Of a stretch of 64,000 nucleotides of DNA, positions 2 through 40,364 are shown piece after piece. The notes under the pieces were generated by a model that was not told where the DNA came from, made no database searches, and worked only from the letters and a program-made list of their open reading frames with translations. The stretch comes from an uncultured Chloroflexia bacterium (GTDB lineage Bacteria; Chloroflexota; Dehalococcoidia; Dehalococcoidales; UBA2162), in contig CAVTJN010000019.1 of NCBI GenBank assembly GCA_963735055.1, forward strand, positions 329,547-393,546. Direction: 5' to 3'. A program made the translations under genes and the position numbers. Position 1 is the first letter of the stretch. Each line of letters opens with the position of its first letter.

Positions 2-862
2 CGCGTGGTGACGGCCTTGATCGGGCAAGGGCACGTCGTCGCCGTCACCGGGGATGGGGTCAATGACGCTCCTGCCCTGAAGAAAGCCGACATCGGCATC
101 GCCATGGGTATTACCGGCACCGACGTCAGTAAGGAAGCGGCCGCCATGGTCCTCACCGACGATAATTTCGCCTCCATCGTGGCCGCCGTGGAAGAGGGCC
201 GGGGCATCTACGACAACATAAAGAAATACCTCATGTTTCTGCTTTCCTCCAATATCGGTGAAATACTCCTCATGGCCGCGGCCATTCTTCTCGGCCCCGT
301 GATCGGACTGCCCTTCGGCGCCATCCCTCTCATCGCCATTCAGATTCTGTGGGTCAACCTGGCCACTGACGGACTGCCCGCCATTGCCCTGTCCATTGAC
401 CCCCCCGCCCCCGATATCATGAAGCAGAAGCCCCGGCCCCGGGGACAGGGCATCTTCACCAGACCCGTCTTGACCCTCATGGCCGTCGGCGGCCTTTGGT
501 CGTGCATCGTCAACATCGGCATCTTCAAATGGGCCCTGGATTCAGGCCGGCCCATGCTCGAGGCCCAGGCGCTGTGCTTTCTCACCCTCATAATCATCCA
601 GTTCTTCAAAGCCTACAACTTCCGTTCCGACACCCATTCCATATTCAGCATCGGGTTCTTCAAGAACAAATGGCTGAATCTGGCCATCCTGTGGGAGGCC
701 GCCCTGCTGGCCGTAATCGTCTACACCCCCCTTCTTCAGGACTCGTTTCACACCTTCTCCCTGAGCCTGGCCGACTGGCTGATCGTCGTTCTGGCCGCCG
801 GCACCGTCTTTCCCGTCCTTGAGTTGGCGAAGCTGCTCATCCGCAGGCGGTCGAGTCGTTGA
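2..862 (+). CDS. P-type cation-transporting ATPase (type II, PacL/SERCA-like), C-terminal part; 5' end outside window
   Basis: ORF 5..862 has the hinge motif VTGDGVNDAPALKKADIGIAMG followed by several hydrophobic TM segments. The frame is open to the window start. Confidence 0.85.
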   Translation, partial: RVVTALIGQGHVVAVTGDGVNDAPALKKADIGIAMGITGTDVSKEAAAMVLTDDNFASIVAAVEEGRGIYDNIKKYLMFLLSSNIGEILLMAAAILLGPVIGLPFGAIPLIAIQILWVNLATDGLPAIALSIDPPAPDIMKQKPRPRGQGIFTRPVLTLMAVGGLWSCIVNIGIFKWALDSGRPMLEAQALCFLTLIIIQFFKAYNFRSDTHSIFSIGFFKNKWLNLAILWEAALLAVIVYTPLLQDSFHTFSLSLADWLIVVLAAGTVFPVLELAKLLIRRRSSR

Positions 863-869
863 GTGCCCT

Positions 870-1130
870 TCCGAGCCCAGCGAGGAATGGTCAAGGGGTA
901 ACCGCCTTCGTAGCGAAGCGGAGAAGTGGTCGTCCTCCCTATCCCGGAGACCATCGCGGTCCGGATGTTCGCCTTCGTTGAGTGTCCCCTTGACCCCCAT
1001 CAGTCATTGCGAGGAGCGTAGCGACGAAGCAATCCGAGCCCACCATCTTGCGGGACCCCCTCCCCGCTCACCCTGCCTGTCCAGAGCGTAGCGTGGGAAG
1101 CTTGCTTGCCCCCTCCGCTCATGGTGAGCC
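870..1130. repeat. Non-coding, hairpin-dense GC-rich spacer/repeat-like sequence abutting the truncated copB-like gene
   Basis: Short stem-loops at CTTCG-TAG-CGAAG (906-918), ATTGC...GCAAT (1006-1033) and GCTCA-TGG-TGAGC (1117-1129). No credible ORF. Minus-strand ATPase homology stops at ~1126. Confidence 0.3.
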
Positions 1131-2006
1131 TGTCGAACCAGTTCCGCAACCTGGCCCAGATAGGACTCTGCCCCGGTCCTCTGAACCCGAACGGTGACGG
1201 CTCCGTCCCCGTTGACGGAACCTCCCACCACCTTACTGCCAACCTGCTTTGGGACAGGCGCCGACTCCCCGGTAAGGAGGGCTTCGTCAGCCGAACTCCC
1301 TCCCTCCTCGACCGTACCGTCGGCGGGAAATATCTCGCCCGGACGCACCAGAATCCGGTCACCGATGGCCAATTCGCCAACCGGGACATCCAGAGTCCGG
1401 CCGTCAACCATAACCCGGTGAGCCGCCGCCGGCATCATCCGGGCAAGCGATTCCAACGCCGACGAAGCCCCTCCGATCGATCTCATCTCCAGCCAGTGGC
1501 CCAGCAGCATCACGTCTGTTAAGGTCGCCAGTTCCCAGAAGAAGACCTCACCGGCGAGGCCAAAAACGACCGCGCTCGCTGTAGACGTAAGCCGTCGAGA
1601 TGGCAACTGCAACAAGCGTCATCATACCCGGAGACCGGGTCCTCAACTCTTCAAAAAACCCTCTCAGAAAAGGGTAACCGCCGTAGAAGTAGACTACCGA
1701 GGAAAGAGCGAGCAGCACGTAGCCATCGCCATCGAAACGGAGTATACCGCCGAGCCCAAAGAGGTCCTGAATGACGGGCGAAAAAATCAAGATGGGGACG
1801 GTGACCGCCAGCGACCACCAGAACCGCCGCCGAAAGTCGGCGATCATCATGGCATTGTGATCGGGGCGTTCGGACGGGCCAGATGTATGCCCCGGCGTGT
1901 GCCCGTACTCCGCCCCTTCAACCGGCGCCAGCGGCTTCTTCAGGTTCTCTTCTTCATGCGCACCGTGACTCATATGCACGCGACTGACCCCCGATGTCGT
2001 GCCCAA
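1004..2006 (-). pseudogene. Heavy-metal P1B-type ATPase (CopB-like, His-rich N-terminus), frameshifted and 3'-truncated
   Basis: ORF 1548..2006 (His-rich N-term plus TM helices) and ORF 1004..1615 (actuator domain, LLTGESAPV) read as one gene split by one extra nt near 1571-1580 (..YVYS[g]SAVVFGLAGE..). Homology ends after ..AELVRQA at ~1126, so the DKTGT and ATP-binding domains are absent. Confidence 0.75.
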
Positions 2007-2223: not shown

Positions 2224-4080
2224 TTGACAAGGAAAGGTGTGTTCTTAGCATTTGCCATCCTCACCTCCATCGTCCTAGTTCTAGTATCGTGCGGCTCGGG
2301 TCCATCCACCACAACTGCGCCGCAAACGACGACTGTCAAACCGACTTCCACGACGTCGGCCCCTCCTCAGCCAACGACGACTGCCGCCTCGGACAAACCG
2401 AAGTACGGTGGCACCATCACCATCAGGGAGTTGACCGACCCGACCTGCTGTGACAGCGCGGCCAACCGCTTGATGAGTAACACTCTGGGCCTGTGGTACG
2501 CGCACGAGCAACTGCTGAAGTTCGACTGGGCAAAAGGTCAGGCGGGCACCGGCGAATACAGCACCCTGGCTGTGGCCAGTCCCGAAGCAATGATGGGGGG
2601 GGAGCTGGCGGAGAGCGTACAGCTGCCCAATCCTAACACTTGGATACTCAACATACGGCAGAACGTCCGCTATCAACAACCCGACACTGAAGCGGGAAAG
2701 CTGGTGAACGGCCGCCTGATGACGGCCGACGACGTGGTCTGGACATACAAAAGGAATATCCAGGGTCCCAATACGGCTTTAAGCATCTTGCAGCCGCGGC
2801 TGGCTGCCACTATGGGGGTCGAGAAGACCGGCCCCTGGCAGGTGACCATAACCGCCCCGGTACAGCCGGTCACCGCCCAGTGGTGGGTGATCGAAGGTGG
2901 TGGGTATGGGTTCATGTACCCCAAGGAAATCGTTGACAAATACGGAGACATCAACAACTGGAGGAACATGGTGGGCACCGGCCCCTGGATGCTGGATGAC
3001 TGGGTCCCGGGAAGCTCCGTATCCCTCAGGCGTAACCCTAACTACTGGGGTGTGAACCCCGCTGGTCCAGGCAAGGGCGACAAGCTGCCTTACGCGGACA
3101 GGTTGAAAAGACTCATCATCCCCGACACGTCGACCTTCTTTGCGGCCGTGCGCACCGGCAAGATGGACATGTCAGGCCCGGTTGCGTACGATGATTATAC
3201 CGAGTTGAAGCGCACGGCGCCACAGCTGGAATACGTGGAGTATCTCGGTGACGGGTTCGCCAACGCTCACGCCGTCAACTTCAACCTGGCCGACAAGACC
3301 AAACCCTGGGCCGATGTCCGCGTGCGCCAGGCGCTCATGCTGGCCGTTGACTATGACGCCATCATCAGCGGCTACTTCAAAGGAAAGGCGGAAAAGGACA
3401 CCGTCCTGGTTAACAAGAACTTCACCGGAAAAGGCTACAAGCCGCTGAACACCATGGCGCAGTCAGTTCAGGATCTGTACAAGTATAGCCCCGACAAGGC
3501 AAAACAGCTTCTGAAAGATGCGGGCTTCCCCAACGGCTTCAAGGCCGAGGTGCTCGTGCCCAGTGTGCCGGATTCAATCGTAGACCAGGCCTCGATTATC
3601 AAAGATATGTGGGCGAAGATCGGTGTCGACCTGACCATAAAGCCCACCGACAGTGCCGCGCTCACGTCCATAGTGACCCGCACCTTCTCCTGGACCGACA
3701 TGTTTTACGGCACCTTCTCGGGCGGCACGGTGGCATCGTTCGGGTTCTCTCTCTATACCTATTTTGGCTACTACCGGGGCGACAACCGGCCCCAGTTTGC
3801 CAGCCGAACCGACGCCGGGGGGACGCCCGATCCGATAATTGAAAAGGCCTTTGCGACCACTCAGGAGAATATCTATGTTAACTGGCCGGCCGCCTACAAG
3901 GCGGTCGAAGAGATTCGGCCGTACCTGATTGAACAAGCTTTCAGGGTACCGTTCCCACAACCCTTAAACTACCAGATGTGGTGGCCCTGGATGAAGAACA
4001 CCTACGGCGCTGGTCCCACGGCATACTACCTGAAGTACTACTGGGTCGACCAGGACCTGAAGCGGTCCATGGGCTACTAG
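2224..4080 (+). CDS. ABC transporter substrate-binding lipoprotein, family 5 (peptide/nickel type); no permease or ATPase genes adjacent
   Basis: 618-aa ORF with TTG start after the GCAGGAGGA RBS. Signal peptide with lipobox LVSC and a Thr/Pro-rich linker. Length and composition fit SBP_bac_5 proteins. Confidence 0.8.
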   Translation: MTRKGVFLAFAILTSIVLVLVSCGSGPSTTTAPQTTTVKPTSTTSAPPQPTTTAASDKPKYGGTITIRELTDPTCCDSAANRLMSNTLGLWYAHEQLLKFDWAKGQAGTGEYSTLAVASPEAMMGGELAESVQLPNPNTWILNIRQNVRYQQPDTEAGKLVNGRLMTADDVVWTYKRNIQGPNTALSILQPRLAATMGVEKTGPWQVTITAPVQPVTAQWWVIEGGGYGFMYPKEIVDKYGDINNWRNMVGTGPWMLDDWVPGSSVSLRRNPNYWGVNPAGPGKGDKLPYADRLKRLIIPDTSTFFAAVRTGKMDMSGPVAYDDYTELKRTAPQLEYVEYLGDGFANAHAVNFNLADKTKPWADVRVRQALMLAVDYDAIISGYFKGKAEKDTVLVNKNFTGKGYKPLNTMAQSVQDLYKYSPDKAKQLLKDAGFPNGFKAEVLVPSVPDSIVDQASIIKDMWAKIGVDLTIKPTDSAALTSIVTRTFSWTDMFYGTFSGGTVASFGFSLYTYFGYYRGDNRPQFASRTDAGGTPDPIIEKAFATTQENIYVNWPAAYKAVEEIRPYLIEQAFRVPFPQPLNYQMWWPWMKNTYGAGPTAYYLKYYWVDQDLKRSMGY

Positions 4081-4098
4081 AAGCATCAACACATTAAT

Positions 4099-4130
4099 CC
4101 TCCCGGGCGGCGCCTGCACCGCCCGGGAGG
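4099..4130 (+). terminator. GC-rich hairpin after the SBP gene (no U-tract)
   Basis: Perfect 12-bp stem CCTCCCGGGCGG / CCGCCCGGGAGG with an 8-nt loop, 19 nt after the stop codon. Confidence 0.3.
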
Positions 4131-4302: not shown

Positions 4303-4818
4303 ATGAAGGCCGCACCGGCGATCGCGAAGTTCGTGTTCCTGCTGAGCCTGCTGGTTGTATCGTGCGGACCTTCGGGCCGCCCGGTCACAACCTCACCGGA
4401 AGGGCCGGCGCCTTCGGAGTCCCCGTCCTACCAGACCCTGGTCAGAGACGCCTTCATTGATCCCGCAATACCCAGGATCACGGCGGAGGAACTCAAGCTC
4501 CGGCTGGGGTCCGCGATGATCGTCGTCGACAACCGGAGTGAATACAAGTTCAAGGCTGGACACCTGGCCGGGGCGATCAATATCACCTATTCGGTCAACA
4601 GTCCATTTCCAGGGGCAGAAGAACAGATGGACCGCGATCTCTCCCGGCTGCCGAACGACTCGCTGAAGGTCTTTTACTGTGACTGAGCCAAGGATGATGA
4701 AAGTGCCCGTGTGGCACGAAGGCTGGTGGACAGGGGCTACGACATCCGGAACATCCTGGTCCTCTGGAAGGGCTACTTTCACTGGCTGGAACTCGGCTTT
4801 CCCGTTGTGACCGAATGA
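4303..4818 (+). CDS. Exported single-domain rhodanese (sulfurtransferase) lipoprotein with in-frame UGA (candidate selenocysteine) at the catalytic position
   Basis: Starts MKAAPAIAKFVFLLSLLVVSC (lipobox). Rhodanese core reads IVVDNRSEYKFKAGHLAGAINI. TGA at 4684-4686 is followed in frame by 43 more codons (AKDDESARVARRLVDRGYDIRNILVLWKGYFHWLELGFPVVTE) ending at TGA 4816-4818, which overlaps the next ATG. Confidence 0.6.
4703..4717 (+). promoter_or_regulatory. SECIS-like hairpin downstream of the rhodanese UGA
   Basis: GTGCC-CGTGT-GGCAC (5-bp stem, G/U-containing 5-nt loop) begins 17 nt after the UGA. Confidence 0.4.
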
Positions 4819-5351
4819 CCCGATGTGGACAAACGGCGCACCGGGTGAGGCAGTTCCTCACAAGTAGTGGCCTCAGCCTGGCCTTGCGTTACCTGTTGGG
4901 GGCGGTGATCCTGCTTTCTGCTGTCCCTAAGCTCGCTGACATCGACCTCAATTCGGTCTATGTGGTCTACAGCTACTACATTCTGCCCGTTCAGCCCGTC
5001 AACTTCGCCCGGTTTGCCGGCCTGGTCGTTCCTTACGTTGAACTTCTCATCGGGCTGGGCCTTGTCCTCGGTATCCTGACCAGACTCTCCGCCGCCGGCT
5101 GGATGGCGATGTCTTTGGTCTATTTCTCAATCAAGATCGATATTATCTTTGTTCAGGGACGAATCATGCCGTGCGGCTGTTTCCAGGGTGTGATTTCCAA
5201 CATGCTGGTAACGCAATCGATATGGCTGGACGTCATGAGCATCGTACTTTGCCTGCAAATTGTCCTGGCAGGCAAGGGACGGCCGCTCCTTTCGTTGTGG
5301 TCTGCGCTTCCCGACAGATGGCAAAACGGCCTGCCCCGGCGCTTCTGGTAG
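4815..5351 (+). CDS. MauE/DoxX-family integral membrane protein
   Basis: 178 aa with 4-5 TM segments and a CGC motif (IMPCGCFQG). The ATG overlaps the extended rhodanese stop (GAATGA). Confidence 0.65.
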   Translation: MTRCGQTAHRVRQFLTSSGLSLALRYLLGAVILLSAVPKLADIDLNSVYVVYSYYILPVQPVNFARFAGLVVPYVELLIGLGLVLGILTRLSAAGWMAMSLVYFSIKIDIIFVQGRIMPCGCFQGVISNMLVTQSIWLDVMSIVLCLQIVLAGKGRPLLSLWSALPDRWQNGLPRRFW

Positions 5352-6550: not shown

Positions 6551-8077
6551 TTACATCGCCCCAGCCAGCCCTGCGAAGCCGAAGACGAAAAGGATGTAGG
6601 CGCCTCCGCTCACCAGCGTGACCGCCGCCACGCTTTTGACGGCCGTCCACAGGCTGACCTCGGTTCGGCGCTGCAGCCTCCCGGTCATCAACGCTCCGGC
6701 CAGAGCGAAGAGGGGCACCGTCACCACCAGGGGCTCAAGGCGATGTCCCGCCCCCATGGTCGAAATCAAGAAGGCGACCGCCCCGGGGAGGAACAACAGC
6801 AGATTCCACCCCAGAAACCCCAACCCAAGCCCCAGGACTCCAGCGGCTTTCACGCCACCGCCGAGGAGGCGGGGCATGAGGAACCACCAGGCCAGAATCC
6901 AGAATACGGCTGCCGCGATCAGACCGCTTATCAGTACCCGCATCTGTCCGGCCGACCTTACCCTGGCGCCCAAGGCGCTGACGGCAGCCCCCGACTTAAC
7001 CGTGATCACGATGTCTTCGGCGGCATTGCTGTTAGCGTAAGTCCCGCGCCACACGGTCAGTTCATTAGGCAGAAAGGGATGTCCCGAGCCAGAGGTGGTC
7101 TTCTGATTGAACGCCGATTCGGCGGCATAGGCGGGTGCCTTACCGGTCTGCGCAATCAGCGGCACGTAGCGGCCCCCTTCGACGGTCATGCCCGGACGGC
7201 GAATCCCGAGTTTCGGATACCTCACGTTGAAATGCAGGTCCGGGGGCGCCACCACATAGACCCGCGTCATCTCGATCGGGCTGGCCCAGGCAGCTCCGGT
7301 ACTGAGCGGGTAGGCGTAGGTCGGTCCCGCCTTGGCGGTAACCAACGCCGAATGCCATGACAGATGGAGACCGGGCTCTCCGATCTCCGCCGCCCCTCCC
7401 CCAGGGTCGCCGCCGGCCGACAGCGGGGCAGTGTGGAGTTTGACGACGGCAATTTGCTGACCTCTGACCCGGGACAGCGCCTCGGCGACTGACGGGTCAA
7501 GGCCGGCGGTAGCCGCCAGCGCGTCGACGTCAGTGTCTTCGCTTACATCAAAGACGCTCACCTCAGAGCTTTCCGTGGTGAAGGAAGAAACCGGGGCCAG
7601 TGCCGAGCCCGCGTCACATCCAGTCAGGAAAACCGGAATCCAGACCGGCGCCAGCCAGGCCCCGTTAGCGAGCAGCGCCCCGGCAAACAGGGTTTCCGTG
7701 AACTGACGGCTCTGCTCACGATACTCGAAGATCCTGGTATCGAACTCGTTAGTATAGCTCCTGGAGAAAGTGACAGAGTCCGTTTCGCCGACCGAAAGCC
7801 CGCCGGCGTCCACACCGAGGGGGACGAAGTACGTGATCTCGTGCGAGACTCCGGTCTCGTCGAGGATCGAGACGAAAAGTTCGACCGAGACGGTCTGGAG
7901 GTCCTTGATGGTGACTACGGCGACTTGCTGCCCTTCCTTCAAACGGGCGTAGAGCGATGGTTCGACGATCGGACCGCCGTCGGCGAGCGCTGCCGCCGGC
8001 CACAGGCCGATAACGGCGGACAACAACGCCGATGACCATGGGAGCCACCATCTCCGCGGAGAAACGTCAACGGTCAC
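6551..8077 (-). CDS. Uncharacterised exported protein with C-terminal multi-TM anchor
   Basis: 508-aa ORF with an N-terminal signal-like segment (LLSAVIGLWPAAALA), a ~370-aa soluble region and 4-5 C-terminal TM helices. No motif recognised. The opposite-strand ORF 6419..7360 is Arg/Pro-rich shadow. Confidence 0.6.
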   Translation of the reverse strand: MTVDVSPRRWWLPWSSALLSAVIGLWPAAALADGGPIVEPSLYARLKEGQQVAVVTIKDLQTVSVELFVSILDETGVSHEITYFVPLGVDAGGLSVGETDSVTFSRSYTNEFDTRIFEYREQSRQFTETLFAGALLANGAWLAPVWIPVFLTGCDAGSALAPVSSFTTESSEVSVFDVSEDTDVDALAATAGLDPSVAEALSRVRGQQIAVVKLHTAPLSAGGDPGGGAAEIGEPGLHLSWHSALVTAKAGPTYAYPLSTGAAWASPIEMTRVYVVAPPDLHFNVRYPKLGIRRPGMTVEGGRYVPLIAQTGKAPAYAAESAFNQKTTSGSGHPFLPNELTVWRGTYANSNAAEDIVITVKSGAAVSALGARVRSAGQMRVLISGLIAAAVFWILAWWFLMPRLLGGGVKAAGVLGLGLGFLGWNLLLFLPGAVAFLISTMGAGHRLEPLVVTVPLFALAGALMTGRLQRRTEVSLWTAVKSVAAVTLVSGGAYILFVFGFAGLAGAM

Positions 8078-30412: not shown

Positions 30413-31462
30413 CTAGCTTACGATTATCTTGCCGCGCGGCTCGGCAACAACATCGCCAATGACCGCCGCCTGACCTATCCCCGCCCTCTTCATCTCAGTG
30501 AGCAACCTGTCCGCGCTCGCCGCGCCGACACTGATCAACAGGCCGCCCGAGGTCTGCGGATCGGAAAGTATCCGCTGCAGGTGTTCCGAGACCGGAGAGG
30601 CGAACCTGACGCAACTGGAGTAGTACTCCCGATTCCGCTCCAATCCGCCCGGAAGAAAGCCGGCTTCGCTGAAGGCCACGGCCTCCGGAAAGAACGGCAA
30701 AGCGCCGGCTCTTATGACAAATCCCACACCGCTGTTCTGCGCCATCTGAAGAGCGTGCCCCAGAAAGCCAAAACCGGTTATGTCGGTGCAAGAATGAGTA
30801 TCCGCTGCCGTCATCAGCGCCGATGCCTTCTCATTCAAGGTCGCCATGCTTTCAGTGATGCGGTCAACGACCGGCTTAGAAGCTGCGCCGTTCTTCAAGG
30901 CCGTACTGATAATACCGGTACCCAGGGCCTTGGTGAGTATGAGTCGGTCACCGACCAATGCGCCGCCGTTAGTAATCAGACGCTTGGGATCGACTACTCC
31001 GGTGACTGACAAACCGTACTTGAGTTCGGGATCATCTACGCTGTGCCCGCCCACTAGTGCCACCCTCGCCTGCTTCATCTTATCCAGGCCACCCCGAAGA
31101 ATATCCCTGAGCACCGACGGGTCGAGAATGTCCTTGGGGAAACAGACCAGATTCATCGCGGTGACCGGCCGAGCGCCCATGGTGTAGATATCGCTCAGCG
31201 AGTTCGCGACCGCGATCTGCCCGAAACTATACGGATCGTCAACGACCGGCGTAAAGAAATCGACCGTCTGGACTATGGCGAGGTCATCGGTCAGCCGGTA
31301 GACGCCGGCGTTATCCCGACTCTCAACGCCTCGCAACACGTTCGGATCTGACTCAAACCGCAAACCCGACAGGGCTTTGTCCAGGTCCTCCGGACCCAGT
31401 TTGGCTGCTCAGCCCGACGAGCGCACGCTCTCCGTCAACCGAGGCTGTTTTCCCGACGGCAT
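30413..31462 (-). CDS. selD: Selenide, water dikinase (selenophosphate synthetase) with in-frame UGA (Sec) in the N-terminal glycine-rich loop
   Basis: ORF track calls only 30413..31363. Extending upstream in frame gives [39 protein letters not shown].., with the ATG at 31462 preceded by GGAGG and the TGA at 31409-31411. Confidence 0.85.
31381..31399 (-). promoter_or_regulatory. SECIS-like hairpin downstream of the selD UGA
   Basis: Minus strand: CUGGGUCC-GGA-GGACCUGG (8 bp including G-U pairs) starts 10 nt after the UGA. Confidence 0.5.
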
Positions 31463-31495
31463 GTATGACCTCCGGATGGTTGCATGATTTACGCC

Positions 31496-31525
31496 ATTCT
31501 ATCACCCTGGTTTTCCCAAAAGCAA
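31496..31525 (-). promoter_or_regulatory. selD promoter candidate
   Basis: Minus strand: TTGCTT (31525-31520), 18 nt, TAGAAT (31501-31496). Confidence 0.35.
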
Positions 31526-31584
31526 AGGAGTTCCTGGAACAACACATAGCTCAGACACTCACCACCAAGCCCAGGAAACTGCGT

Positions 31585-31613
31585 TTGACAGCCCCCCCTC
31601 CCCATTGTAGACT
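31585..31613 (+). promoter_or_regulatory. glyA promoter candidate
   Basis: TTGACA (31585-31590), 17 nt, TAGACT (31608-31613), then GAGGAG RBS and the ATG at 31633. Confidence 0.5.
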
Positions 31614-31632
31614 TCAAAAAGAGGAGAAAAGA

Positions 31633-32877
31633 ATGGGCTCTTTGAGGCAAGTTGACCCCGAGATCAGCCATGCCATCGAACTTGAGAAACAGCGGCTCCA
31701 GGAGAGGATAAACCTGATCGCGTCGGAGAACTACCCGAGCCGGGCGGTGATGGAAGCCCAGGGTTCGTTCTTGACTTCGAAATATGCCGAGGGTTACCCC
31801 CGCCACCGCCACTACCCCGGCTGCGAAAACGTGGATATGGTTGAAGATCTGGCCATCGAACGCGCCAAGTCCTTGTACCGGGCAGAACATGCCAATGTCC
31901 AACCCCACGCTGGAGCTCAGGCCAACATGGCCGCCTACTACGCAACTCTGGAGCACGGCGACACCATTATGGGAATGTCGCTGGCCCACGGCGGTCATCT
32001 AACTCACGGAGCGGACGTCAATTTTTCGGGCAAGCTCTACAACGTCGTAAGCTACGGGGTTGACCGCGATACGGAAAGAATCGACTACCGCGAATTGGAG
32101 CGGCTCGCAGTCAAACACCGCCCCAAACTAATAGTGGCCGGCTTCAGCGCATATCCAAGGATCATTGATTTCGAACGTTTCAGACAGATCGCGGACAGTG
32201 TCGGCGCCATCCTGATGGCCGATATTGCCCATATTGCCGGTATGGTCGCCGTGGGCCTCCATCCGACGCCGGTGCCCTACTGCGAAATCGTCACTTCGAC
32301 GACTCACAAGACGCTGCGCGGTCCGCGGGGCGGCTTCATCCTGTGCCGCCGAGCATTGGCTCCGGCAGTTGACCGGGCGGTCTTCCCCCAGATGCAGGGC
32401 GGCCCGTTGATGCACACCATCGCGGCCAAGGCGGTAGCTTTCCGCGAGGCGATGCTCCCCGAGTTCGTGGAATACCAGCGAGCGATACTCGACAACGCTC
32501 AAGTCCTGGCATCTGAGCTCAAGAGACTCGGGATGCGACTGGTCGCCGGCGGTACCGATACGCACCTGGTCCTCGTTGATCTTACCCGCAATGGCTTCAG
32601 CGGCAAGAAGGCTGAGGAAGCTTTGGGCAAGGCGGGTATTGTAGCAAACCACAACCTGATCCCGTTTGACCCGCGCCACCAGGCCGCAACGAGCGGGATC
32701 CGCCTCGGGACTCCGGCAGTCACTACCAGGGGATTCGGACCTGCCGAGATCAAGTTCATCGCCGCGAGCGTAGTTGACGTCCTCAACCACATTGATGATG
32801 CCAGGGTACAATCTCAGATCGCCGACAAGGTGAAGGAACTGTGCTTGCGGTTCCCGATACCGGCGCTGGTAGACTAG
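31633..32877 (+). CDS. glyA: Serine hydroxymethyltransferase
   Basis: ..[30 protein letters not shown].. ORF-track start 31465 is an unsupported 5' extension. Confidence 0.9.
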
Positions 32878-38579: not shown

Positions 38580-40364
38580 ATGTGCGGAATAGTCGGATAC
38601 GTCGGTGACAGCCAGGCGCAGCCAATACTGTTGAACTGTCTCCGGAAGCTTGAGTACCGGGGATACGATTCGTGCGGCATCTCGGTCGCCTCAGGAGAGA
38701 TCCAGACCTGTAAGGATGCCATCAGGGTCGAGGATTTGTCCAGACTATCCCCGCAGTTCCCGGGAACCATCGGGATAGGACACACCCGCTGGGCAACCCA
38801 CGGTCCTCCTTCCCGAGTCAATGCTCATCCGCACTCGGATTGCTCGCGGAGGATATCGGTGGTGCACAACGGCGTTGTGGCCAACTACCAGCAACTCAAG
38901 AAGCAGCTTATCACCGAGGGCCACAGGTTCCTATCCGAAACCGACACGGAGGTAATTCCACACCTGGTGGAGAAGCACTATCACGGTGACCTCGTCAAAG
39001 CCGTGGAGTTGACCGTCGCCGAGTTGGAGGGTTCCTACGCCTTCATTGTGATGATGGCGGGAGATCCGAGACTGGTCGTGGCGAAGCGAGACAATCCGCT
39101 GGTTATCGGGATCGGCGACCACGGGAACTTCGTTACTTCGGACGTACCGGCCTTGTTGGATTATACGAACAGAGTCATCTACCCGGAAGATGGAGACCTG
39201 GTCGTCCTCGAACAAAGGAGCGTCCGCGTCATCAGGAACGGCGAAGAAGTGAAGGTCGAGGAACAGAAGGTGCTCTGGGGAGTGGACGAGGCCAGGAAGG
39301 GCGGCTACGAGCACTTCATGCTCAAAGAAATCCATGAACAGCCGCGGGTGATCAGGAACACCCTGGCCGAATACTCACGCAACCCGGACCCGGTGGCCGC
39401 CCTGTCACGACTACGCGACGACGGGATGGAATCGATGCTCATGCTTGCCTGCGGCACTTCCTATCATGCGTCGCTGGTAGGCAAGTACATGATCGAGGAA
39501 CTGCTGAGAATTCCGGTGAGGGTCGAACTGGCCTCTGAGTTCAACTACTACAGCCATGCACTGGCAAAGACGCTCGCCATCGCCATAACCCAATCTGGAG
39601 AGACGGCCGACACGCTAAAAGCGATGAGGCGATCGAAGGAGGTCGGCTGCTCCATCCTGGCTATCACCAATGTCGTGGGCAGTTCGGCGACGCGCGTGGC
39701 GAACCAGACCATCTACACCCGGGCCGGGCCCGAGATGAGCGTCGCCGCGACCAAGAGTTTCACGGCGCAGCTGATGGTGTTGTACTGGCTGGCGATATCG
39801 TACTCTAAGGATCCCCCCAAGCGCGTGGCGGCTTTGCACGGGGAGCTCAGGCAACTACCGACCAAGGTGCAGCAGGTGCTGGACGAGGAAAACAGCATCA
39901 GAGATCTGGCCAAGTCATTGGCACAATACGAAAATGCCTTCTTTATCGGGCGCGGAATCAACTACCCGATAGCCCTGGAGGGCGCCCTGAAATTGAAGGA
40001 GATCTCTTATATCCACGCCGAAGGCGCGGCCGCCGGGGAGATCAAACATGGCCCGCTCGCCCTGTTCGGGGCCGACACGCCCGTGATTGCACTTGTGGGC
40101 AAGGACGGCACCTACGGACCGATGGTAACCAGTATCAAGGAAATCAAAGCCAGGGGGGCGCCGGTCCTGGCGGTGGCTGAGGAAGGCGATGATTCGGTCA
40201 AGGAACTCGCGGACTCCGTCATCTATATTCCGCCGATAGAACCGATCTTCTCACCAGTCCTGAACGTTGTCGCCCTGCAATTGCTGGCCTACCACACGGC
40301 CAAAGAGCGGGGCTGTCCGGTGGACTTCCCGCGCAATCTGGCCAAGAGTGTAACGGTAGAATAG
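38580..40364 (+). CDS. glmS: Glutamine--fructose-6-phosphate aminotransferase
   Basis: MCGIVGYVG.. Ntn-Cys, two SIS domains, C-terminal ..NLAKSVTVE. Confidence 0.9.
   Translation: MCGIVGYVGDSQAQPILLNCLRKLEYRGYDSCGISVASGEIQTCKDAIRVEDLSRLSPQFPGTIGIGHTRWATHGPPSRVNAHPHSDCSRRISVVHNGVVANYQQLKKQLITEGHRFLSETDTEVIPHLVEKHYHGDLVKAVELTVAELEGSYAFIVMMAGDPRLVVAKRDNPLVIGIGDHGNFVTSDVPALLDYTNRVIYPEDGDLVVLEQRSVRVIRNGEEVKVEEQKVLWGVDEARKGGYEHFMLKEIHEQPRVIRNTLAEYSRNPDPVAALSRLRDDGMESMLMLACGTSYHASLVGKYMIEELLRIPVRVELASEFNYYSHALAKTLAIAITQSGETADTLKAMRRSKEVGCSILAITNVVGSSATRVANQTIYTRAGPEMSVAATKSFTAQLMVLYWLAISYSKDPPKRVAALHGELRQLPTKVQQVLDEENSIRDLAKSLAQYENAFFIGRGINYPIALEGALKLKEISYIHAEGAAAGEIKHGPLALFGADTPVIALVGKDGTYGPMVTSIKEIKARGAPVLAVAEEGDDSVKELADSVIYIPPIEPIFSPVLNVVALQLLAYHTAKERGCPVDFPRNLAKSVTVE

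Follow-up and report, generated by a model that had tools for sequence, protein, structure and literature searches.

The window analysed here, a stretch of 64,000 nucleotides (nt) of contig CAVTJN010000019.1 from an uncultured Chloroflexia bacterium, carries on its plus strand two overlapping genes that are the subject of this report. The upstream gene (positions 4303-4818, 171 codons plus stop) encodes a rhodanese-like protein and is interrupted by an in-frame UGA codon; the downstream gene (4815-5351) encodes a four-helix membrane protein of the MauE/DoxX type. Comparison with relatives makes it very likely that the UGA (4684-4686) encodes selenocysteine (Sec) and that the upstream gene is a selenoprotein gene. 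We discuss the evidence for Sec, the fold of the protein and its active-site loop, the recurrent pairing with MauE and a redox relay in which the two products may act together.

The reading frame starts at ATG 4303-4305 with MKAAPAIAKFVFLLSLLVVSC. Its N-terminus (MKAAPA..LLSLLVVSC21GPSG..) carries a lipoprotein signal peptide (4303-4365), recognized by pattern inspection, whose lipobox V-V-S-C (..LLVVSC21) follows the pattern [LVI][ASTVI][GAS]C and ends at Cys21 (codon 4363-4365). A Cys after the hydrophobic N-terminal segment is kept in nearly all homologues (e.g. ..GGCG, ..GSCG, ..TACG, ..NACS), and the product of 4303-4818 is most likely an exported, lipid-anchored, extracytoplasmic protein with a rhodanese fold. 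Further on, the codons TAC TGT GAC TGA give Y125, C126 (TGT, 4678-4680), D127 and, at position 128, the in-frame TGA. The frame then stays open throughout the next 43 codons (4687-4815; AKDDESARVARRLVDRGYDIRNILVLWKGYFHWLELGFPVVTE), which complete the rhodanese domain with a helix, a GY and an LWKG..W.ELGYP ending. The frame is finally closed by TGA 4816-4818, the true stop, and this codon shares nucleotides with ATG 4815-4817 of the MauE gene (GAATGA, an ATGA overlap). Translated through the UGA, the product matches the Pfam Rhodanese family (PF00581) over residues 60-163, that is, across the UGA (7e-12, 46.1 bits, cutoff 22.2), and orthologues have the same gene structure. The first-pass annotation of this DNA had already described the frame with its 43 further codons and overlapping stop, the lipoprotein signal (LLVVSC) and a C-D-U motif; all are present, the last as F-Y-C-D-U, and the retention of Cys21 among homologues supports the exported lipoprotein.

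A search of 5.8 billion proteins returned 17 homologues. Fifteen of these are gene calls of only 96-149 residues that end exactly at ..(V/I)(F/L)YC-x. By comparison, P0006 (167 residues, 47% identical to the window protein) is a full-length homologue with Cys in the UGA column and reads FYCDCPLDQTSAGLAQRLIDKGY, and a second protein search added nine more full-length C-D-C forms. When 1.84 billion cluster representatives were searched exhaustively with a profile, 46 matched at E <= 1e-30; among the best 150 representatives, 31 end at ..YC-x and 26 are C-x-C forms. Altogether, Cys occupies the UGA column in P0006, P0018-P0025 and P0028 and in two of the DNA loci described below (L025 and L028), so that Cys-aligned and Sec-aligned relatives are both found.

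Related DNA loci were collected from several sources: contigs encoding truncated gene calls (L001, L002), a scan of species-representative genomes (L003-L008), a metagenome scan (L009-L037), searches that started from MauE (L040-L042) and two further representatives (L043, L044). Among the genome-scan loci, L003 and L004 are close relatives in Chloroflexota metagenome-assembled genomes (MAGs), and L005-L008 are distant rhodaneses from other phyla. About 25 distinct loci keep both the TGA column and the downstream frame, at identities down to about 32% to the window protein, and share after the TGA the sequence x-x-D-x-x-S-A...G-[YF]...N-[IV]-x-[VI]-LWKG...W-x-ELGYP. Over the 42 codons after the TGA, the differences among eight close loci number 191, 174 and 467 at codon positions 1, 2 and 3, which is, on this codon statistic, a signature of purifying selection in the post-UGA frame. 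The motif itself varies in an informative way. The residue between Cys and Sec can be D, N, T, A, S, G or L, and at the C126 column almost every relative has Cys; L043 has Sec there instead, and L044 has Ser. In L043 (529-537; ENA ERZ27279932 k141_257113), two in-frame TGAs lie six nt apart (..VIY-U-D-U-TDDGQSA...) and form a putative Sec-x-Sec centre. L044 (746-751) reads Ser-Asp-Sec (S-D-U), having lost the first Cys, and has an extra Cys at U+5. Reassignment of UGA in the genetic code was considered and rejected, since TGA is the ordinary stop of 19 of the 53 long open reading frames (ORFs) in the window (G+C 58.5%).

Sec insertion would rely here on a candidate bacterial selenocysteine insertion sequence (SECIS): a SECIS-like hairpin (GUGCC-CGUGU-GGCAC; 4703-4717, plus strand) with a 5-bp stem and a 5-nt loop, separated from the UGA by a 16-nt spacer. 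Our alignment A4 comprises 20 Sec-form loci and runs from the TGA to +57; in it, columns 20-24 with 30-34 correspond to window positions 4703-4707 with 4713-4717. Every one of the 20 loci forms the five core pairs, three of which show compensatory changes on both sides. Pair 20-34 is CG in 10 loci, GC in nine and GU in one; pair 21-33 is UA in 15, CG in four and UG in one; pair 22-32 is GC in 14, GU in five and AU in one. As a control, the 3' partner was shifted by 1-3 columns, after which only 27-54% of cells were paired, and RNAalifold independently predicts the same five pairs. Moreover, the covariation crosses two Ser codon families (AGU vs UCU), with the partner changing accordingly, and protein constraint alone is therefore insufficient to explain it. 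The two unusual loci, L043 and L044, have the same hairpin structure as other Sec forms; in L043 one hairpin (UCUGCC-CGUGC-GGCAGA) after the second TGA serves both TGAs. In Cys-form loci the stem is degraded, with G.G and A.A mismatches in L028/L029, G.A and A.A mismatches in L038 and the closing pair lost in L025. This comparative pattern supports the hairpin at 4703-4717 as a SECIS directing Sec insertion.

The window also contains selD, the gene for selenophosphate synthetase (30413-31462, minus strand), and this gene has an in-frame UGA of its own (31409-31411; ..VRSSG-U-AAKLG..). With the TGA read through, selD gives a match to TIGR00476 (5.5e-111) that begins at model position 1, and a hairpin (GUCCGG-AGGAC-CUGGAC; 6 bp, 5-nt loop) begins 14 nt after the UGA. 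Its flanking genes encode an Rrf2 regulator, a pyridoxal phosphate (PLP)-dependent enzyme (probably cysteine synthase-like) and serine hydroxymethyltransferase (SHMT). A selD gene with its own UGA suggests that the organism decodes Sec. Two selD neighbours (31465-32877 and 38580-40364) were examined as Sec machinery and rejected, as they are SHMT and GlmS. The first-pass annotation had proposed Sec at UGA 4684-4686, a hairpin behind it and a similar read-through in selD, and these proposals have fared well. The hairpin is there, its first nt being the 17th behind the UGA, and it is paired in every Sec locus of the alignment and decayed in Cys forms; the TIGR00476 match agrees with read-through in selD; and both join the kept TGA, the kept downstream frame and the Cys-aligned relatives in support of Sec. 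Had the gene truly ended at the UGA, orthologues would stop there with no kept frame behind it; the opposite was found.

For the fold, we used the AlphaFold (AF2) model of the Cys homologue P0006 as a stand-in for the window protein (predicted local distance difference test score, pLDDT, 85.8). All of its top PDB matches are rhodanese domains, the best being BH2092-type proteins (PDB 3nhv, 3o3w). In the model, the strand L117-Y121 runs into a six-residue coil (C122-D-C124-P-L-D127), and a helix starts at Q128. The corresponding loop of the window protein, C-D-U-A-K-D-D-E-(S), is two residues longer than the canonical six-residue C-X5 loop of rhodaneses. It is also acidic, as had been pointed out at first pass, and an Asp or Glu is invariant at U+3 across the family.

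Which residue of this loop corresponds to the canonical rhodanese Cys is a closer question. The first-pass annotation held that U replaces the active-site Cys, on the strength of a spacing shared with GlpE. The spacing stands: U128 and G145 are 17 residues apart, with S134 at U128+6 and G145 at U128+17, as in GlpE. In unmasked alignments with U replaced by C, the substituted Cys even falls on the catalytic Cys of the PDB rhodaneses 6mxv and 1tq1. This placement appears to be biased by the Cys-Cys match, as three checks on sequence and model show. With the Sec column masked, BLASTP aligned C126 to the catalytic Cys65 of GlpE, with a two-residue gap in the helix. In a family profile with both columns masked, the Cys of four out of four canonical-loop domains (YCGGGFRS, YCRSGKRS, YCGAGHRS and YCKVGMRS) went to the C126 column, two positions being deleted further on. 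The third check is the secondary structure of the AF2 model, in which the Cys equivalent to C126 is the first residue after the central beta-strand. In addition, relatives of equal loop length read Y-C-x4-C with their first Cys in the C126 column, and BH2092 does likewise. Because of the masked BLASTP, the masked profile and the AF2 secondary structure, we lean, by a modest degree, towards C126 as the canonical rhodanese Cys and Sec at +2 in an elongated loop. The replacement of the active-site Cys by U is thus not confirmed and is probably wrong. The S-D-U form, which keeps Sec and loses the first Cys, speaks against a simple accessory role of Sec.

The downstream gene matches MauE (PF07291) at 1e-15 (58.3 bits, cutoff 27), and DoxX was also matched. 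Between predicted helices 3 and 4 its product has the motif Cys120-Gly-Cys122 followed by F-x-G (5172-5180), in a loop that the positive-inside rule would place on the outer side. Among ten partner MauE proteins, R-I-x-x-C-G-C-F-x-G is invariant at this site, the P-K (K39) at the end of helix 1 is invariant as well and a Glu in helix 2 (E76) is found in eight. MauE lies directly 3' of the rhodanese in many Sec-form loci (L001/L003, L010, L013-L015, L020, L023, L026, L034, L036, L037, L040 and L044, the last with MauE at 896-1414 directly downstream of the S-D-U rhodanese) and also directly 3' of Cys-form rhodaneses (L038/L039 and the P0025 contig). In L041 it is found 1.1 kb downstream, with a toxin-antitoxin pair inserted between. 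The linkages in L040 and L041 were found starting from MauE homologues (i.e. in the unbiased direction), and stop/start overlaps between the two genes recur. The ATGA overlap, taken as a sign of translational coupling, and the recurrent adjacency, for Sec and Cys forms alike, support the coupling to a MauE/DoxX protein that had been suggested earlier, and we regard the rhodanese-fold protein as a probable functional partner of MauE.

What such a partner might do is indicated by recent work on distant MauE proteins. MauE from two other phyla replaces DsbB in E. coli, complementing a dsbB deletion; this requires its periplasm-facing CXC (usually CGC, then F and G), and a quinone docks near a conserved Lys and Glu (bioRxiv 10.64898/2026.03.05.709764, a 2026 preprint). 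The authors expect thioredoxin-fold partners and name neither rhodanese nor Sec (10.64898/2026.03.05.709764). For rhodaneses, the periplasmic PspE is cited as able, when overexpressed, to stand in for DsbA (Chng 2012, as cited in PMC5403849). Moreover, one relative of 435 residues (P0200) fuses a DsbA-like thioredoxin domain to two rhodanese domains with a canonical CGAGHRS loop, which hints independently at cooperation between rhodanese domains and the disulfide machinery of the envelope.

In the relay that we propose, the UGA at 4684-4686 would be decoded as Sec by SelB and tRNA-Sec, directed by the hairpin at 4703-4717. The C126/U128 pair, followed by the invariant acidic residue, would cycle between a thiol/selenol state and a Se-S bond. 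The C-G-C of MauE would reoxidise this C-x-U centre and link it, through MauE, to the quinone pool. At the membrane's outer face, the oxidised rhodanese-fold protein would then hand oxidising equivalents on to extracytoplasmic thiols, with protein thiols and low-molecular-weight or sulfane-sulfur species as candidate substrates. That is, a rhodanese-fold protein would occupy the role held elsewhere by DsbA or MauD. Taken as a whole, a two-component redox relay of a Sec rhodanese lipoprotein and MauE has our support by a small step beyond even. An oxidative, DsbA-like flow is a tentative part of it, somewhat short of an even chance, and we are more hesitant still about the idea that MauE has as its dedicated exported partner a C-x-U, C-x-C or U-x-U rhodanese in place of a thioredoxin-fold DsbA or MauD. 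If true, it would mean that Chloroflexota and other uncultured anaerobes have a route of extracytoplasmic thiol oxidation that uses selenium and is not of the thioredoxin type.

Several observations weigh against this proposal. With respect to Sec, selA, selB and tRNA-Sec were not found within the 64-kb window. The window hairpin is small and no more stable than shuffled sequence (z = -0.13), and because its stability is not unusual by itself, the comparative signal is what decides for Sec. No Rfam family matches the hairpin, either at gathering thresholds over the whole window or at permissive E-values over 4600-4830, where the searches gave only tRNA-Arg plus noise; to our knowledge, Rfam does not cover bacterial SECIS elements. 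With respect to the pairing, the MauE linkage is not universal, and other neighbours are found in several Sec-form clades (L002/L004, L012, L021, L033 and L024). In L024 (2815-3084; the Y-C-D-U-P-D-D-x-E-S clade), for example, the downstream gene encodes an 89-residue 2x[4Fe-4S] ferredoxin ending in C-C-D-C-K, which is possibly an alternative redox partner. Neither 57 MauE homologues nor ten multi-domain rhodanese relatives include a MauE-rhodanese fusion. Finally, the function assigned to MauE would be carried over by analogy from one preprint on distant MauE proteins, and both the substrate and the direction in which electrons flow are purely inferred.

Alternative readings of the UGA itself fare poorly. 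Every public gene caller stopped at this TGA, as would be expected of a real stop (a nonsense mutation, pseudogene or sequencing error) with a downstream frame that is open by chance or decaying. Yet about 25 independent loci, drawn from different samples and lineages, have this same TGA, and the frame behind it is kept under purifying selection together with a kept structure, so that comparative data effectively refute this explanation. Read-through as Trp, Cys or Gly is hardly more credible. Three protein records (P0027, P0088 and P0140) do have W at the Sec column (Y-C-D-W), which may reflect mutation of TGA to TGG or contigs translated with genetic code 4; the latter would hide further Sec forms. 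Across the family, however, it is Cys that alternates with Sec, and neither Trp nor Gly; many genes in the window, this one included, end in TGA; selD itself contains a UGA; and the covarying hairpin lies at SECIS distance and is specific to TGA forms.

Other readings accept Sec and differ in what the protein does. The rhodanese could be a true sulfur (or selenium) transferase or oxidase that carries a persulfide or perselenide on Cys126 or Sec128, with MauE/DoxX as a quinone-linked electron sink and no disulfide-forming relay, by analogy with the DoxD/DoxA thiosulfate:quinone oxidoreductase (TQO) or the M. tuberculosis DoxX-SseA complex (the latter reportedly described by Nambi et al. in 2015). 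We consider this unlikely, with a real minority share of the probability. It would suit the rhodanese fold seen by Pfam and in the AF2 model of P0006, the additional matches of the partner to DoxX and, weakly, to DoxD/TQO, and the presence among the structural matches of rhodanese domains coupled to persulfide reductases (3nt6, 3icr). The loop fits it less well, being strongly acidic with the invariant Asp/Glu at U+3, whereas thiosulfate-binding loops are basic or neutral, and two residues longer than canonical C-X5. Nor does the window protein match the GlpE and PspE NCBIfam models (NF001195, NF007627; E <= 0.01), and the partner bears the CXC-F-G signature of MauE, not DoxD features. A more improbable view takes the Cys-x-Sec-x-x-Asp loop as a cell-surface site for soft metals or metalloids (Cu, Hg, As, Se), with MauE setting the redox state. 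A Cys, a Sec and an invariant carboxylate do share one loop, and several catalogued CU, UxC or CxU selenoproteins are metal-related (PMC13188914). The gene upstream belongs to the NikA/opine-metal solute-binding family, and the MauE partner weakly matches a DoxX-like Cu-RiPP maturation family (RiPP, a peptide made by the ribosome and modified after translation; NF050144, E = 0.003). Each of these links is weak or circumstantial, though: the solute-binding neighbour is kept in the closest relatives only, and neither a metal transporter nor a metal regulator shows consistent linkage.

The upstream neighbour just mentioned is a gene for a family-5 solute-binding lipoprotein (2224-4080, plus strand). 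It precedes the rhodanese in L001, L002, L004, L009-L012 and L040 and is absent in L038, L041 and L044. It was considered as part of the unit and rejected, being conserved only among the closest relatives. Just past it, at 4100-4129, lies an inverted repeat (CTCCCGGGCGG..CCGCCCGGGAG) of 11 bp, perfect and rich in G+C, that lacks a T-run and may separate the solute-binding gene transcriptionally from the rhodanese-MauE pair. Elsewhere in the window, a heavy-metal P-type ATPase (1004-2006, minus strand) is split over two frames (1548-2006 and 1004-1615), after which similarity is lost, and is probably a pseudogene. The C-terminal part of another P-type cation ATPase (5-862, plus strand) is cut by the window edge, and a 508-residue ORF (6551-8077, minus strand) has several predicted membrane segments and no Pfam match. 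Among the relatives, the contig of L040 carries, beside its Sec rhodanese, an AhpC/TSA gene call of only 99 residues (176-475), which may be another selenoprotein cut at a UGA. L005, L006 and L007, from Thermodesulfobacteriota-type MAGs, are distant exported rhodaneses with Sec placed otherwise (F-Y-C-R-G-x-x-U). Their best match is to the rhodanese domain in the model for the selenoprotein TsoB, at up to 120 bits against a cutoff of 805.

These results bear on annotation as well as on function. This gene and at least 31 clusters of its relatives are recorded as fragments of roughly 120-130 residues, cut at the Sec codon. Since the nearest curated model also misses them, a sizeable branch of rhodanese selenoproteins is invisible to current pipelines. 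The MauE pairing, in turn, offers a concrete, assay-ready hypothesis for a selenoprotein family whose function is unknown. Moreover, the series of C-x-C, C-x-U, S-x-U and U-x-U forms at one site provides a system for asking what selenium contributes to an i/i+2 redox centre in an acidic loop.

Rhodanese selenoproteins have been predicted since 2005 (PMC1088965), and reviews list five forms, among them 'form 3, NF041203, CxU' (PMC13188914; PMC9312934). Of the curated models, NF041203 (rhodanese_LYCAU) scored highest with each family member tested. Its cutoff of 115 bits is not reached, the window protein (U to C) scoring 54.3 bits and 20 relatives 40-83 bits. By these scores, the window clade is a sister branch of NF041203, with the same type of motif and outside that equivalog. 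The two branches share a single rhodanese domain, a Cys-x-Sec after an aromatic residue (L-Y-C-A-U vs V-F-Y-C-D-U) and the interchange of Sec and Cys. NF041203 is itself a bioinformatic prediction of unknown function, and its model spans 126 positions without the N-terminal anchor and linker. Its reviews mention neither a lipoprotein anchor nor MauE linkage, and the literature searched holds no description of a lipoprotein form or a MauE pairing and no relevant joint mention of MauE and rhodanese.

Other rhodaneses resemble the window protein in part. Like PspE and GlpE of E. coli, it is a small single-domain rhodanese, and PspE is extracytoplasmic too. PspE and GlpE have one Cys, the canonical six-residue loop and thiosulfate sulfurtransferase activity (PMC2593051), whereas the window loop is acidic, two residues longer and has a Cys plus a Sec. 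The BH2092-type proteins (3nhv, 3o3w) and the Y-C-x4-C relatives agree with it in the length of the elongated loop and in the Cys that immediately follows the strand Tyr. In BH2092-type proteins, which are structural-genomics entries of unknown function, the second Cys is at +5 instead of +2, and there is no Sec. TsoB (NF045694; PMC13188914), the second-best NCBIfam match at 35 bits against a cutoff of 805, likewise combines a Sec-containing rhodanese domain with a membrane thiol-disulfide module. It does so as a fusion-like rhodanese/DsbD protein (572 positions) with two Sec (UxxxxU) and a reductive, DsbD-like module, whereas here the two parts are separate genes and the module is MauE (oxidative, DsbB-like).

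A close parallel to the proposed relay is the MauE-centred pathway of disulfide-bond formation, in which MauE acts with DsbA or MauD (10.64898/2026.03.05.709764). The four-helix MauE (as predicted here) is common to both, with its outward C-G-C followed by F-x-G, its helix 1 Lys and its helix 2 Glu, as is an exported partner with two closely spaced redox-active chalcogens (here predicted). On the other hand, the exported partner here has a rhodanese fold instead of a thioredoxin fold, a C-x-U (i, i+2) instead of a CxxC, and Sec. CxU rhodanese selenoproteins are already catalogued; the conserved pairing of this branch with MauE appears to be new and suggests a Cys-x-Sec/Cys-Gly-Cys redox relay outside the membrane.

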